A DNA stretch of 64,000 nt from Planctomycetota bacterium (GCA_965223845.1 CBDCXR010000004.1:7584001-7648000), one strand, 5' to 3'. Numbered from the stretch's first letter, positions 20,186 through 25,245 are shown. Notes: generated from the sequence alone by a model not told the origin. A program made the numbers and translations.

Positions 20186-20588
20186 GAAGGTCTCCGGAAG
20201 CGCCAGGTCGTACTCGGCCTGGAGCGACAGGTGGGATCGATGGATGGATCAGTCTCGCGCGGGCCCCGACGACTAAGTTCCGGTTCTCGTTGCGAAACGC
20301 CTGAGGGTGGACGGTGATCAAAACGCGCAGGTCGAAGGCGTGCGCTGCGTTGTTGTTCGAACTCGTGTTTCCGAGCGCGTAAGGCCTAGCCCTCGCAGAG
20401 ATTCGGCAACCGCACGAAGGCCGGCGCAACTCGCGTTACGCGCGGATCTCGGTCGCGTGGTCGCTCCCCTATCGTCGGTGTATTCTTGCGAGAACGTTCT
20501 CCTTCTCCGGGGCGAACGATTTATCAGCCTTCCTCATTGGGGTTGCTCCCGTGAACGGCACGTTCAGTGCCGAAAGATACAGAACGTG

Positions 20589-23500
20589 ATGGAAGAAACG
20601 CACCTCACCGAGAGTCGTCACTTGGCGAACCAAGCGCGTGTTCCGCAGCGAGAGTTCCGACTCCTCGTCGAAGGGATGCATCGCTGGCTCTCCGAGTTGG
20701 CCGGCGAGCGCTCCGAGCCTGCGCCGTGCGTCGGATTCGTACGCGGCGAAGCTGGGCGTGGAGGGCGTCAGGCCTTGCACGCTCTGCGCGGGATGTGTGA
20801 GCAGCTCGGAATGGAGGTGCTGCACGTCCGCGGACGCGACGGCTCCGGACCGTCCGCTTGGATCGGTTCGCTCGTCGATCAGTTGCTTCGCTCGGTACGA
20901 CTTCCGGGTGAAGAAGAGAACGCCGGTCCGAATTCGCGGATCGAAGTTGCGCCCGACATTCTAGCGGTGCTCGCGAGCGTCACTCCGGGCGCGGGGTCGA
21001 TCGATGGCGTCGCGCCGGCGCCCGATCTCGGACCCGCGGCGAACGTCCACCGCCTGGCGGACGCGGTGAGTCAAACCCTCCGCGCGATCGCGCGTTCGCG
21101 TCCTGTCCTCGCGGTGTTCGAGAGAATCGATCTCGCGGGCTCCATCGCCGCGGAGGTCGCGCAACATCTGGTGCGCGTTCTTACGAAGGCGAACTCCGCG
21201 CGGCCGGAGCGGGTCCTCGTCGTGGCGAGCGCCGCCGATGGCAACGATCCGTCGCTCAGCTCGCTCGTCGAGGTAGCGGACCGCACCGTCTTCGAGGTCG
21301 AGATGCGCGGGTGCTCGCGAGACGATCTTCAGGAGCTCGCTCGCGTGCTCGTCGGGGCGGAGCTTTCCGTCTCGGAGCGCGAGCGGGTTCTCCGCGCCAC
21401 TCGAGGTCGAATCCGCCACGTCACGTGGCTCCTTCGACTGGCGGGCGATTCGGCCGCGGGAGTCCGCGGGTGGGATCGCTGGCTCGGACTCTCGTTCAGT
21501 GCGCTCGTCCGCCTCCGCGCCGAGCGCCTCGGTGCGCTCGAGCGGGCGGTCGTGAACGCGCTCGCCGCGGCGGGTTGCGCTCTCCCCGAGGCTGCGATCA
21601 TCGATTCTTTGCGCGTGACCGCCGACTCCGCGGACGACGATGCGCCGGCGGCGGCAGCGATCCGGGCGGCGATTGCGGAAGCCCGGGAAGCGGGCTGGGT
21701 GAGCTCGTCTCCCGACGGTCGCGATTCGTCGGGGATCGCCTACTCGATCTGCGACGCTGAAGTCGCGGAGATCGTCCTCCGCGACCTCTCCTCGGCGGCT
21801 CGCTGCGAGGTGTTCGCGAGCCTCGTCGCCGCACTCGAACGAGCGAGCTCTGGCGACGAGCGCTGGCTTCCCCTTCTCTCGCGTCTCGCGATCGAAGACC
21901 TCGAACGCATCGACAACCCGGGAGTCATCACGCGCGGATTCGACTACCTCGAGCGTGTCGGATGTGCGGACGAAGTCCTCGAGCTCCTTCCGGCCGGAAT
22001 CGAGCTTCTCGCGGCGCGTGCGCCGGCGGACGCCGATCCTTGGCGCGCTCGCTACGCAGGGCTGCTCGAGCGCACGGGGAGGCTGCACGAGTCGCGCGAA
22101 GAGAGCGAGCGACTGACCGGTGAGGAAGTCGACCGCACGATCGCGGTCGAGGCCTGGCGACGGATCGGCGATATCGCGCGAGCGGAGGGTCAGACGGTAG
22201 ACGCGGTGAACTGCTACCGCCGGGGACTCGAGCGCCTCGACGAGGTCGATCGGGCCCTCCGCATTCACTTGCTGCGCCGGCTGGCCGAAGCCTGCGCAGC
22301 ACTGGGCGACCGCGACGCGGCACTGCGCGCTCTCGCGATCGCCACCGATGGGATCGGTGCCGCGGATCGGGAAGACGAGCTGCGCCTGACGCAGCTCACT
22401 CTCGAGCTCTCGCCGCCCGGAAAAAACGCGGGATCGATCCCCGCACGCACCACAACGTGGTCTCTCGGACTGCGGGATCTCTGCGCGGGGGTGAGGATCT
22501 GCCTGAAGATCGCGCGGCTCTGTCGCGAGCGGGCGGAGCTCGGTGCGGCCGAGGAGTGGCTCGACGCCGCCGACGAGATCGCGGCGGCCAGCGGCTCGCG
22601 AGAGCTCGTCGCCGAGGTGCTCTCCGTGCGGGGCGAGCTCGCCCTCGAGCGCGGCGAGTCCGAGCTCGCCCTCCGGCTTCTTCGCGCCGCACGAGAGACT
22701 CTCGAAGAGTTTGGCGCCGGAGCCGCGCTGCGGGAGCTCTACGGATCGATCCTCGAGGTAGAGCTCGCGAGCGGAACCTTCGACGCCGCCGGCCGGACTG
22801 CGCGTCGACTTGCGGAGTCCTGGGCCGAAGAGGCGCCGGCCGACGATCGACCGTTTCGTCTCCGTCCCGAGGGGCGCGAGCGACCGCAGCGGATCGCCGC
22901 CCTCGAGAAAACGGTCTACGGCGAGGCGCCGAGCAGCATCCACGACCATCTCGAGCTGCTCGTCGCGGCACTCGACTCGGGACAGCTCACCGAGGCGACC
23001 GAGCACGGCGGCGCGCTCGTTCGAAGCGCGCGCCGCGACGACGCGGACGAGTGCGCAGTCGTCACCATGGCCGGTGCCCTGCTCGCGCGGATCGAAGCCC
23101 TTCGCGGCGAATACGACGGAGCGCTTCGCTGGGTCGCCGAGGCACTCAAGGGGCAGCGCGGCGTGCCGGATCGCCGCGTGGTCCAGGCGGCGTTTTCCGT
23201 TGCCGGCCGCGTCTCTCTCGAGCGCGGTGAGCTCGCGCGCGCGTACCACTACTTCCTTCGCGAGCTGCGTCTCGCACGCGAGCTCGGATCCGCGGACCGC
23301 CTGGGCCTCGCGTACATCGATCTCGCCGACTTTCTCATCGAGGGCGGGGCTCTCGCTGCCGCGGAGGAGATCGCCCGCGGAGCGATTCAGCTAGCGGCTC
23401 TAGCCGGTGACTCTCGCGTCGAGCTCCCGGCGCGACGCATCCTCGCTCGCCGAGCCGCGCTCGCCGGAGAGACGGACGTCGCGCACGCCGAGCTCACTCG

Positions 23501-23978
23501 GGCCGAACGTCTCGTCGCCCGGCTCGAGCTTCCGGTCGACGCGTGCTTCCTTCGCCTCGAACGAGGTTGGCTGGAAGTGGGGCGCGGCGACTTCGAGCGC
23601 GCGCTCGTCGTCGCGCGGGAGGGAATCGAGATCGCGCGAAGTAAGGGACTCCACCCGCTACTCGACGATTTTCTCCACCTCCTCGGTGCGATCGAAGGAG
23701 CGCGCGGCAACGCACGCTCCAATTTTCTCCGCGCGCTCGAAGCGCTCGAACAGGCCGTCGCCGGCGCCGAGGCGCGCTGTCGCCCGCAGCGGAGCTGGGA
23801 GGCGCTCATCGCGATCGCCAAGGCCTACGCTGAGCGCGGGAAGCTCGAGCTGACGCGACAGTACGAAGCCCGTGCCCGCGAGGTCGAGTCGATCGCACTC
23901 CATCCGCTGCCGGCAGAACTCGCGAGTCTCTCGTGGCAGAGTCGCGTGCCGCTGCAAGCCTCGCCGGTCGCCGTGTAG
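20589..23978 (+). CDS. Large protein with a degenerate STAND/AAA_16-like NTPase domain and TPR-like helical repeats
   Basis: FVRGEAGRGGR at the Walker A position, RPVLAVFERIDLA at the Walker B position, ATRG at the GxP position, and Ala/Arg/Leu-rich TPR-like helices. The ATG 20589 start is inferred. Confidence 0.7.
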   Translation: MEETHLTESRHLANQARVPQREFRLLVEGMHRWLSELAGERSEPAPCVGFVRGEAGRGGRQALHALRGMCEQLGMEVLHVRGRDGSGPSAWIGSLVDQLLRSVRLPGEEENAGPNSRIEVAPDILAVLASVTPGAGSIDGVAPAPDLGPAANVHRLADAVSQTLRAIARSRPVLAVFERIDLAGSIAAEVAQHLVRVLTKANSARPERVLVVASAADGNDPSLSSLVEVADRTVFEVEMRGCSRDDLQELARVLVGAELSVSERERVLRATRGRIRHVTWLLRLAGDSAAGVRGWDRWLGLSFSALVRLRAERLGALERAVVNALAAAGCALPEAAIIDSLRVTADSADDDAPAAAAIRAAIAEAREAGWVSSSPDGRDSSGIAYSICDAEVAEIVLRDLSSAARCEVFASLVAALERASSGDERWLPLLSRLAIEDLERIDNPGVITRGFDYLERVGCADEVLELLPAGIELLAARAPADADPWRARYAGLLERTGRLHESREESERLTGEEVDRTIAVEAWRRIGDIARAEGQTVDAVNCYRRGLERLDEVDRALRIHLLRRLAEACAALGDRDAALRALAIATDGIGAADREDELRLTQLTLELSPPGKNAGSIPARTTTWSLGLRDLCAGVRICLKIARLCRERAELGAAEEWLDAADEIAAASGSRELVAEVLSVRGELALERGESELALRLLRAARETLEEFGAGAALRELYGSILEVELASGTFDAAGRTARRLAESWAEEAPADDRPFRLRPEGRERPQRIAALEKTVYGEAPSSIHDHLELLVAALDSGQLTEATEHGGALVRSARRDDADECAVVTMAGALLARIEALRGEYDGALRWVAEALKGQRGVPDRRVVQAAFSVAGRVSLERGELARAYHYFLRELRLARELGSADRLGLAYIDLADFLIEGGALAAAEEIARGAIQLAALAGDSRVELPARRILARRAALAGETDVAHAELTRAERLVARLELPVDACFLRLERGWLEVGRGDFERALVVAREGIEIARSKGLHPLLDDFLHLLGAIEGARGNARSNFLRALEALEQAVAGAEARCRPQRSWEALIAIAKAYAERGKLELTRQYEARAREVESIALHPLPAELASLSWQSRVPLQASPVAV

Positions 23979-23990
23979 CGGGCCGAACCT

Positions 23991-24083
23991 CGCCTTCTAC
24001 CGAGGCGCCTTGTACCGAGGCGCCTTGTACCGAGGCGCCTTGTACCGAGGCGCCTTGTACCGAGGCGCCTTGTACCGAGGCGC
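23991..24083. repeat. Tandem repeat, 15-bp unit CGCCTTGTACCGAGG x6 plus a partial copy
   Basis: Five exact copies span 24006-24080 and the first copy (23991-24005) has one substitution; there are no spacers. Confidence 0.97.
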
Positions 24084-24137
24084 AGTGAGGAGCGGGCGTT
24101 GAGAGGTGCGCCGTCCGTCATGGGAGCGGCCACCATC

Positions 24138-24173
24138 AAAAAAAGGACGTCTCAGAGGAGTTAAGACGCCCTT
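24138..24173 (-). terminator. Intrinsic terminator
   Basis: Minus-strand AAGGGCGUCU/AGACGUCCUU stem with one G-U pair that forms only on this strand, an 11-nt loop, and a run of seven U. Confidence 0.8.
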
Positions 24174-24235
24174 AGAAAAGAAGTGAAGAGAAACTTGAAG
24201 TCTCGTTTGGGGACCGGTCTCTCGACCGATCAGGT
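24138..24235 (-). ncRNA. Candidate small regulatory RNA (about 95-100 nt)
   Basis: Bounded by a TTGACA-N17-TATAGT promoter and an intrinsic terminator; contains a GAGA-tetraloop hairpin and a CU-rich linker; no ORF. Confidence 0.7.
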
Positions 24236-24239
24236 TCGT

Positions 24240-24268
24240 ACTATACTTGAGCGGCCAGAGGGTGTCAA
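24240..24268 (-). promoter_or_regulatory. Near-consensus sigma70 promoter
   Basis: Minus strand TTGACA (24268-24263), 17 nt, TATAGT (24245-24240). Confidence 0.8.
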
Positions 24269-24576
24269 CCCCTCGGGAAGACAATCTCGGCGAGAATCCA
24301 ACAGCTTTCTCTGATCTGTAACTCTTTTGTTTGCAGTGGTTTGTGGTCGCATTCAGGGCGGGCGTTCCACAAGGCTTCTCGCCAGCCGATTTCGTTGCCG
24401 GCGCGACGACAGGATTCGGCATCGGGACATCGGATTTCGCTGCGCCGAGCGGGTCGAATCCTCGCGAGGAGCGAGAACGACGCGACGACGTTAGGGAATC
24501 GATCGTCGCATTCGAGCGCGCGAACCGGGGATTCGACGAAGCCGGCCTAGATCGGAACGGGACTTGAAGCCGCCTC

Positions 24577-25245
24577 TCACGGGGCGCTGAGCGAGAAGAT
24601 GCGCCAACGATTCTCGACGAAGATGAGCTGATCGACCCCGATCTCGACGTACGCACCGTCGATCTCGACCGCCAGCGAGCTCTTCGTGAGGAGCGGGTAC
24701 GCGTCTCGAAACGCTCCCTGGGCGCCCGGCGCGGTGACGAGGTCGCCCGGTCGCCATTGCCACTCCGTCGCGGCGCCGTCCTTGACCGCGCCGATCAGCT
24801 GATCGACGATTTCGCGGTTCGCCGAGACGATCGCGGTGCCCATGATTTGAAGGTGGGACGGATTCAGGATGCGCCGCGAGAGCTCTTCGTCGACGAGGAG
24901 TTTCTTCGCCGCGTCGCTATCTCCCTTCTTCATCGCCGCGATGAACTCGTCGACCGTCTTTTTCGCCGCGGCGAGCGCCGTCGCGTCGGCGATCGTCGCC
25001 GCGGGCGGCGAGGTCTCCGCCGGGGTGAGGGCGCTCTCGATCGTCGCCGCCGCGTCGGGGGTCGCGCCGCTCGTCCCGGTGCCGGCGGGCTTGGGCGAGC
25101 TCGTGGCGTCGGCGGGTGTGGATGCGGTCGGGGGTTGCGCGCTGCCCGGCTCCGGATTGGACGGTGTGTTCGACTGCGGGGTGCAGCCGGCGAGAATCGC
25201 CGCGGCGGCGGCGATCGCAAGGCGGGTGGTGAGTCGTTCAGTCAT
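24577..25245 (-). CDS. Hypothetical lipoprotein
   Basis: MTERLTTRLAIAAAAAILAGC with lipobox LAGC, a Pro/Thr/Ala linker and a small globular C-terminal domain. Confidence 0.8.
   Translation of the reverse strand: MTERLTTRLAIAAAAAILAGCTPQSNTPSNPEPGSAQPPTASTPADATSSPKPAGTGTSGATPDAAATIESALTPAETSPPAATIADATALAAAKKTVDEFIAAMKKGDSDAAKKLLVDEELSRRILNPSHLQIMGTAIVSANREIVDQLIGAVKDGAATEWQWRPGDLVTAPGAQGAFRDAYPLLTKSSLAVEIDGAYVEIGVDQLIFVENRWRIFSLSAP

Follow-up and report, generated by a model that had tools for sequence, protein, structure and literature searches.

The window analysed here, a stretch of 64,000 nucleotides from a Planctomycetota bacterium, carries on its minus strand what is, judged by comparison with relatives, a real, independent and conserved RNA gene of a previously undescribed family, 'type A', in an uncultured class of the Planctomycetota. 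Type A is a new small RNA (sRNA) family of a known general kind, and an unusually conserved one. The reading we prefer, with a probability of roughly 0.5, is that its RNA pairs in trans with purine-rich, Shine-Dalgarno (SD)-like mRNA leaders in an Hfq-independent manner. An RNA of about 95 nt would be transcribed from its own strong sigma-70-type promoter, would end at an intrinsic terminator and would act in trans without Hfq. The putative pairing parts are a pyrimidine-rich stretch, which resembles the anti-SD tail of 16S rRNA with two C-to-U changes, and a CUCCUC loop. Their pairing with purine-rich, SD-like mRNA leaders would alter translation or stability. A specific mRNA leader that might be such a partner belongs to an exonuclease gene located on C3, a phage contig from the same assembly.

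The predicted gene and its setting in the window

Like trans-encoded sRNAs in general, the gene has its own promoter and an intrinsic terminator and lies between protein genes. Its parts and its two neighbours are the following (positions in the window).

24263..24268, minus strand: -35 hexamer TTGACA (sequence and consensus scan)
24240..24245, minus strand: -10 hexamer TATAGT, separated from the -35 by a 17-nt spacer (sequence and consensus scan)
24138..24236, minus strand: predicted sRNA of about 95-99 nt, with an inferred start and the U run as its end
24212..24231, minus strand: 5' hairpin 1, GAUCGGUC[GAGA]GACCGGUC, 8 bp with a GAGA loop (fold; specific to the own genome)
24190..24204, minus strand: 5' hairpin 2, GAGACU[UCA]AGUUUC, 6 bp including one G-U pair (fold; specific to the own genome)
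24174..24189, minus strand: 16-nt unpaired stretch UCUUCACUUCUUUUCU (minimum-energy fold)
24174..24193, minus strand: conserved pyrimidine-rich single strand UUUCUCUUCACUUCUUUUCU, the candidate seed (alignments A1 and A2; unpaired probability)
24143..24173, minus strand: terminator hairpin, 12 bp, with an anti-SD-like CUCCUC in its loop (fold and scan)
24155..24161, minus strand: terminator loop ACUCCUC (fold)
24138..24142, minus strand: U tail that follows the stem, part of a U run spanning 24138..24144 (sequence and scan)
24138..24193, minus strand: 56-nt 3' module, the defining element of the family (24 genomes, identity 94-100%)
20307..23978, plus strand: 1223-aa TPR/MalT-like gene, convergent with the sRNA (syntenic neighbour)
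24577..25245, minus strand: lipoprotein gene of no known family (syntenic neighbour)

A start of the sRNA near 24236..24231 is inferred from the position of the -10 hexamer only, and the 3' end is taken as the U run that ends at 24138. The promoter agrees with the consensus at 11 of 12 positions in the scan. Within the 10 kb around the sRNA the same scan finds two promoter-like sites against 0.5 expected, and the pattern TTGAC[AT]-N17-TATA[AGT]T occurs a single time in the whole 7.9-Mb genome, at the sRNA. The gene itself is present in one copy in its own genome.

The minus-strand promoter, the three hairpins, the CU-rich single strand and the terminator with a CUCCUC loop, all listed in the preliminary description of this DNA, were found again by sequence, fold and scan. 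The hairpins can be followed beyond the window only in part, as the first two are specific to the own genome, show no conservation in relatives and are not family features. Folding is strand-specific, as had been proposed: the minus strand reaches -33.4 kcal/mol (z = -3.19), a value equalled by none of 200 shuffles, versus -26.7 kcal/mol (z = -0.45), equalled by 60 of 200 shuffles, for the plus strand, and the G-U pair holds on the minus strand only. The described AT-richness was likewise observed, with a GC content of 0.47-0.52 at the sRNA region versus 0.65-0.75 in the surroundings. The statement that the region has no open reading frame needs qualification. Mechanical calling gives ORFs of 43, 40 and 219 aa that overlap it, but their frames are unconserved among relatives; the 219-aa frame, the only one tested, has no Pfam match.

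A search of the 64-kb window with Rfam 15, whose families include CcsR1, RsaE and Yfr1, gave no match at gathering level. With E up to 10, nine matches were obtained in 23800..24600, all on a tandem repeat (23971..24097) and none on 24138..24268, in agreement with the earlier view that the RNA belongs to an unrecognised family. The repeat, which has a 15-bp unit (CGCCTTGTACCGAGG; 6.2 copies, 98% matches; 23991-24083 of the window), sits between the stop codon of the TPR gene and the sRNA terminator and draws spurious weak miRNA and CcsR1 matches from Rfam. The RNA chaperones Hfq, ProQ and CsrA (PF17209, PF04352 and PF02599) were searched for in the own genome (91.7% complete) without a match and were detected in the control genomes.

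Distribution, structure and inheritance of the family

Although the gene had been called an orphan, it has many homologues. In BLAST comparisons the 3' part (55-63 nt) is 94-100% identical in 24 of 61 related genomes including the own, and the 5' part is unmatched. A covariance model from relatives, suggested earlier as a check, was built from alignment A1 of the module; with this model, R1, 24 of 59 genomes from the uncultured Planctomycetota class contain a match of 88-98 bits. Listed by family, R1 finds the module in three of four genomes of f1 (own included), in 14/14 of f2, 3/3 of f3 and 4/4 of f5, and in 0/5 of f4, 0/1 of f7 and, at the level of 88-98 bits, 0/28 of f6. The f1 genome that does not have it (G002) is 80% complete. 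BLAST matches to the CU-rich part in f6 were set aside as chance, lying by eye within apparently conserved coding sequence. An exact 21-mer scan of one genome per species (185,579 species) returned 25 stretches, 23 of them titled Planctomycetota, Planctomycetes or Planctomycetia and two titled 'uncultured bacterium'. Metagenomes yielded 42 stretches by a motif-and-gap pattern, 36 of which, each on its own contig, were kept as members; the pattern matches L096, L100, L106, L109, L118 and L129 have neither stem nor terminator and were dropped before alignment A2. Three blocks of the module are prescribed by that pattern; free evidence from these 36 is therefore limited to stem and flanks.

The loci share a sharp boundary, with the sequence from UUUCUCUUCAC to the U tail near-invariant and the sequence upstream of it unrelated between families. 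The candidate seed is invariant in alignments A1 and A2. In the sRNA-bearing order RpoN is 53-65% identical to the own protein, and the neighbouring lipoprotein, in the same genomes, 24-36%; set against these values, the 94-100% identity of the module amounts to a conservation comparable to that of rRNA. At the module edge a T run differs by one nucleotide among relatives (T3/T4), a polymorphism by which any shared reading frame is broken. The alignments show that strong constraint at the sequence level is confined to the 3' module, the 5' domain varying freely in both length and sequence. Two further host copies were noted. A second module copy on contig 463 of G014 (L044 / L174:49-122) has compensatory stem changes, scores 74 bits and lies in an ordinary host context, and a degenerate copy on contig 137 of G009 (L045) has kept the seed and is without a terminator.

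Pair counting was done on alignment A2, which holds 61 sequences, 44 of them distinct. The 12-bp terminator helix is paired in 99.8% of 528 cells, with two two-sided pair changes (U-A to A-U and U-A to C-G) and six one-sided changes. These values were reached by at most 2 of 500 shuffles, and slid registers are only 33-73% paired. The G-U pair shifts its position in some members and stays paired on this strand only. A promoter with at least 10 of 12 consensus positions precedes the module in 50 of 54 distinct loci, 32-178 nt upstream, with a 17-nt spacer in 44 of the 50. When the start was set 7 nt after the -10 hexamer, 45 distinct predicted RNAs of 52-227 nt resulted. The mean probability of the seed being unpaired reaches 0.7 or more in 33 of these 45 (it is incalculable for two that start inside the module), and the CUCCUC loop is unpaired with a probability of at least 0.84 in all 45. 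The two pairing parts named in the preliminary description, the CU-rich stretch and the CUCCUC loop, are accordingly those which the family conserves and which are predicted to be unpaired. A word resembling TGTGGAA(W)T, often beside an A tract, precedes the -35 by 15-29 nt in 42 of 54 loci (for instance L010, L014, L097 and L123), in a count that allows one mismatch and for which we roughly estimate a chance rate of about 5% per locus. By the same criterion it is missing from the window's own copy. Its role may be that of an UP element or of a site bound by a regulator.

A TPR/MalT-like gene flanks the module in 9 of 24 loci and the lipoprotein gene in 19 of 24, and TPR genes also adjoin it in the metagenome loci L102 and L130. 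Within family f1, the window included, the sRNA is flipped relative to its flanking genes. This pattern of synteny points to vertical inheritance of an independent gene. The protein encoded by 24577-25245 has a signal peptide, a lipobox Cys and a conserved C-terminal domain of about 130 aa, and no Pfam match. With the window's protein as query it was found in 17 other genomes, all of them sRNA-bearing and each time on the contig of the sRNA; weak matches in two other genomes, broken by stop codons, were disregarded. Taken together, the comparison supports a conserved, independent non-coding gene on the minus strand, equipped with its own strong promoter and an intrinsic terminator.

Model R1 also gives weak matches, of 32-36 bits, to a second module, in which CUUGCUUCAUUUCUU is followed by a terminator starting (A/G)AGGGCG ('type B').

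G000:C4:2181895, plus strand: own type B (L176:740-955 = G000:C4:2181740-2181955; others are L088, L089, L090 and L177-L206)

With one mismatch allowed, its 15-mer is present in 53 of the 59 class genomes, and a reversed control is rare. A sigma-54-type promoter, TTGGCAC-N5-TGCT, stands about 120 nt upstream of type B in 24 of the 32 loci examined, a count from which one coding-like match was dropped and which includes two loci with only about 215 nt of upstream sequence. The type B loci have no Rfam match. In the own genome the type B 5' domain is rich in GGAG and GAGGG words and includes GAGGAGUGAAGGG, which is complementary to the type A seed. Type A is thus taken to be the younger, sigma-70-driven branch of a larger set of undescribed RNAs that have CUUCAYUUCUU and the stem base in common.

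Candidate pairing partners, likeness to the 16S rRNA 3' end and phage copies

Words of the sRNA stretch occur as a small share in six RNA runs, four of which were examined by assembled contigs. One contig per run (four RNA libraries; 151-286 nt) covers 24132/24138..24193/24200 and diverges from the window on both sides, overrunning the terminator by 19-90 nt and reaching 21-139 nt further upstream, at a depth of 2-4, in libraries of a type that can hold DNA. The rest of the sRNA stretch has no cover in these four libraries. The contigs show that the module is present in the libraries, without fixing a transcript or its ends.

SD motifs (GGAG/AGGAG) are enriched at -8..-13 in the own genome, the gene starts used here and in the target counts having come from a crude home-made caller. 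The preliminary description had pointed to pairing with ribosome-binding sites, an idea to which genome-wide prediction lends no statistical weight, the predicted start-region pairings being no commoner than those of decoys. Sites complementary to the seed are fewer genome-wide than for a reversed decoy, duplexes of -18 kcal/mol or better in start regions number 126 versus 127-261 for six decoys, and the best duplex energies genome-wide are -29.7 and -28.7, against -32.8 reached by a decoy. Nor does the seed pair with rRNA or the rRNA operon transcript any better than shuffled seeds do. Several individual candidates were rejected. The rpoN leader is alike in genomes with and without the sRNA; the TopoIII-RecQ gene is found within the class only in the own genome and in f5; and the start region of the neighbouring lipoprotein gene gives a mean z of -0.49, with 1 of 12 at p <=0.05, and is not complementary to the seed. 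A location of the top matches on mobile elements was also discarded, the TopoIII-RecQ and DUF2582 genes having ordinary neighbours. The best-energy seed match is the start region of a 1400-aa fusion of Toprim/topoisomerase, DEAD/RecQ helicase and HRDC domains (L212:8069-12271, that is G000:C4:5077069-5081271, minus strand).

Among the results of a complementarity scan was, unexpectedly, the antisense of the 16S rRNA 3' end. The own 16S rRNA ends in ...GGAUCACCUCCUUUCU and continues with AAGGGAUGACUUAG, and the sRNA has UCUUCACUUCUUUUCU followed by AAGGGCGUCUUAAC. Seed plus stem base, UCACUUCUUUUCUAAGGG, compared with the 16S/spacer junction, UCACCUCCUUUCUAAGGG, is identical at 16 of 18 positions, from UCAC to GGG. 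Both differences are C-to-U changes inside CCUCC, which leave pairing with GGAGG possible through G-U pairs, and CUUA follows 3 nt further on in the sRNA and 4 nt further on in the 16S spacer. On both strands of the genome the 16S 3' end is the only same-sense match to the seed 18-mer at 15 or more of 18 positions, and 19 sites reach 14. When the whole 63-nt module is scored by local alignment of the BLAST type, other chance matches of 13-17 nt score equally; the weight of the likeness is its location, not its score. The junction UUUCU|AAGGGAU(U/A)ACUU is conserved in 17 of 20 other class genomes with an assembled 16S end, the own form being AAGGGAUGACUU. The bases after the 16S 3' end, AAGGGAU(U/A)ACUU(A/G)GAC, are in themselves conserved in 17/20 (L214-L233; own G000:C4:2875330-2875367), which suggests a conserved processing site. 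The positions in common include UCAC..UUUCUAAGGG. The sRNA differs from the 16S end in its changed CCUCC core and in coming from a gene apart, present once in the genome and equipped with a promoter and terminator of its own. The likeness may have arisen by descent, mimicry or convergence.

The combination of CU-rich stretch, (A/G)CUCCUCUG hairpin and T run has one other occurrence in the assembly, on contig C3. This contig of 42 kb and 63% GC encodes terminase, portal, protease, major head protein, tape measure, integrase, exonuclease and Holliday-junction resolvase, a gene content that indicates a temperate siphovirus-like genome. Two phage contigs, the second from IMG/VR, constitute the phage evidence, and C3 is tied to the host by binning alone.

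L092:4383-4448 (C3 = L091, L092, L093): divergent copy of the sRNA module
L095:9963-10035, minus strand: module on the IMG/VR phage contig, 82.6 bits with R1, near-identical with one loop change

The C3 module keeps the CU-rich stretch and the GCUCCUCUG loop; it reads GUUUCUCUUCUUUUCU, followed by a 10-bp stem of wholly different sequence, the loop UCCUCUG and U6, and its R1 score is 22.4 bits (E = 0.01 over 52 kb). This copy forms the end of a small ORF, 48 nt ahead of the exonuclease start. Folded as one read-through transcript, its CU stretch lies on the SD sequence and AUG of the exonuclease (z = -3.68). In the exonuclease leader the loop-out CCCUUAGGGGGAAGUGAAC is antisense-like to the host seed, with shared UUCACUUC and UAAGGG, and the pairing energy between leader and seed is no better than that of the best decoy matches. 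On the IMG/VR contig, which is related to C3 and shares its head-gene order (PHROGs), the module is followed directly by a small tail-like gene and the genes for the small and large terminase subunits; a weak promoter-like TTGCGT-N17-TACTTT precedes it. GenBank phages, searched for the module, gave no match, and no relative of the C3 exonuclease was found in IMG/VR.

Some of these observations could be accommodated without a trans-acting RNA, the module being instead a cis element (terminator, 3' UTR or leader) or part of a small peptide gene on either strand. The mechanically called ORFs that overlap the sRNA would fit such a reading, as would the C3 module, which closes a small ORF at its 3' end and has a further gene downstream of it. 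But the gene keeps its own promoter in 50 of 54 loci and turns round in f1 with its neighbours in place, and the plus strand folds no better than shuffles. Coding on either strand was rejected because the frames, like the 5' domain, are unconserved among relatives, the T3/T4 polymorphism falling inside the module edge, and a role as leader of a downstream gene was rejected because a convergent gene follows the terminator in most loci. We hold this reading to be highly improbable. The preferred reading, an sRNA that pairs in trans, leaves one feature in excess, as the invariance of 56 nt, stem included, exceeds the needs of a pairing seed alone; this keeps alive both a 16S-related and a phage-related explanation. 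According to the former, which we consider unlikely, the RNA mimics the junction of 16S 3' end and spacer. Instead of regulating specific mRNAs by antisense pairing, it would be a decoy, a competitor or a substrate for the factors that recognise this junction, with 3'-end maturation nucleases, assembly factors and ribosomal protein S1 as candidates. A match of 16/18 that is unique in the genome, the similar spacing of CUUA in sRNA and spacer, a junction conserved in the own genome as well as in 17/20 others and the strongest consensus promoter of the genome are all consistent with it, and a module that is invariant throughout is more easily explained by a conserved protein or ribosomal partner than by a multitude of mRNA targets. 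Against this, the two changes hit precisely the CCUCC core, the similarity is modest by local-alignment score, special complementarity to the rRNA operon transcript was not seen, and the sRNA family is missing in three of the seven class families despite the same 16S tail.

The phage-related explanation, in our estimate a doubtful one, invokes traffic between phage and host: either the host RNA is read or copied by phages for timing their own genes or tampering with host regulation, or the module is an attachment site homogenised by integration. Integration into RNA genes, as at tRNA and tmRNA att sites, produces sharp boundaries between an identical 3' and an unrelated 5' part, and the type A loci have just such a boundary. 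Moreover, the temperate C3 of the same assembly carries its divergent module before an exonuclease whose leader is antisense-like to the seed, and the IMG/VR contig has a near-identical module upstream of packaging genes. In the host loci, however, the two flanking genes stay the same and enclose no prophage, and the second copies and variants that were checked sit among ordinary host genes; as candidate attB sites, the G014 second copy, the G009 degenerate copy and the variants L120, L134, L130 and L102 were dismissed, no integrase being near them. Of the two phage contigs, one shares the whole module, and the C3 copy differs throughout the stem, so that it offers no att identity block. The evidence also comprises these two contigs only, with the negative searches of GenBank phages and of IMG/VR exonuclease relatives and a C3-host link by binning. 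A more elaborate proposal, speculative and of low probability, is that the RNA copies the pre-16S 3' end (anti-SD tail, UUUCU|AAGGG junction and CUUA) and thereby competes with, or reports on, 16S maturation and SD recognition; cleavage at the junction might then free a 16S-like tail, and the phage versions would tap this control.

Relation to known sRNAs and implications

By analogy, sRNAs with an anti-SD motif are the closest known systems to the presumed working principle of type A. CcsR1-4 (RF02791) and the NfeR1 family, both of Alphaproteobacteria, are likewise short sRNAs with their own promoter and terminator, and in loops and single strands they expose pyrimidine-rich anti-SD-like motifs that are thought to pair with the ribosome-binding sites of several mRNAs. 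For CcsR1 the Rfam description of RF02791 gives a 'conserved CCUCCUCCC motif'. The type A motif differs from this repeated CCUCCUCCC in being U-rich (CUUCACUUCUUUUCU) with a single CUCCUC; the phylum differs as well, and the match of RF02791 falls only on the neighbouring tandem repeat, at 19 bits versus a gathering score of 65.3. Neither the CcsR nor the NfeR1 family is known to us to have an invariance over 56 nt, a resemblance to the 16S tail or copies on phages. The parts of the literature reached by our search contained no sRNA that mimics the 16S tail and no Planctomycetota sRNA of such a kind.

Small RNAs whose hairpins contain or flank an ultra-conserved, unpaired C/U-rich motif are exemplified by Yfr1 of cyanobacteria and RsaE/RoxS of Firmicutes, which are Hfq-independent or belong to Hfq-poor lineages and target ribosome-binding regions. 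The Yfr1 motif, ACUCCUCACAC, shares ACUCCUC with the type A loop. Type A is distinct from both in lineage and in its conserved part, a 3' module that includes the terminator, and the sRNA has no Rfam match with E up to 10. Phages and prophages also encode sRNAs and anti-sRNAs, such as DicF and AgvB. The type A case is similar in that phage genomes carry copies or variants of a host-related regulatory RNA module, and dissimilar in that the host gene is ancient and syntenic and only two phage contigs carry the module.

Almost nothing is known about RNA regulators of Planctomycetota, and the lineage concerned is uncultured. The type A sRNA, defined purely by comparison, is an unusually clear case, with a unique near-consensus promoter, rRNA-like conservation of its module, a class-wide sigma-54 sibling and phage copies. 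Should the likeness to the 16S tail be functional, it would amount to a novel means of influencing translation initiation or ribosome maturation. The type A sRNA is an entry point to post-transcriptional control, and perhaps to an interplay of phage and host RNA, in a phylum that lacks the usual chaperones.
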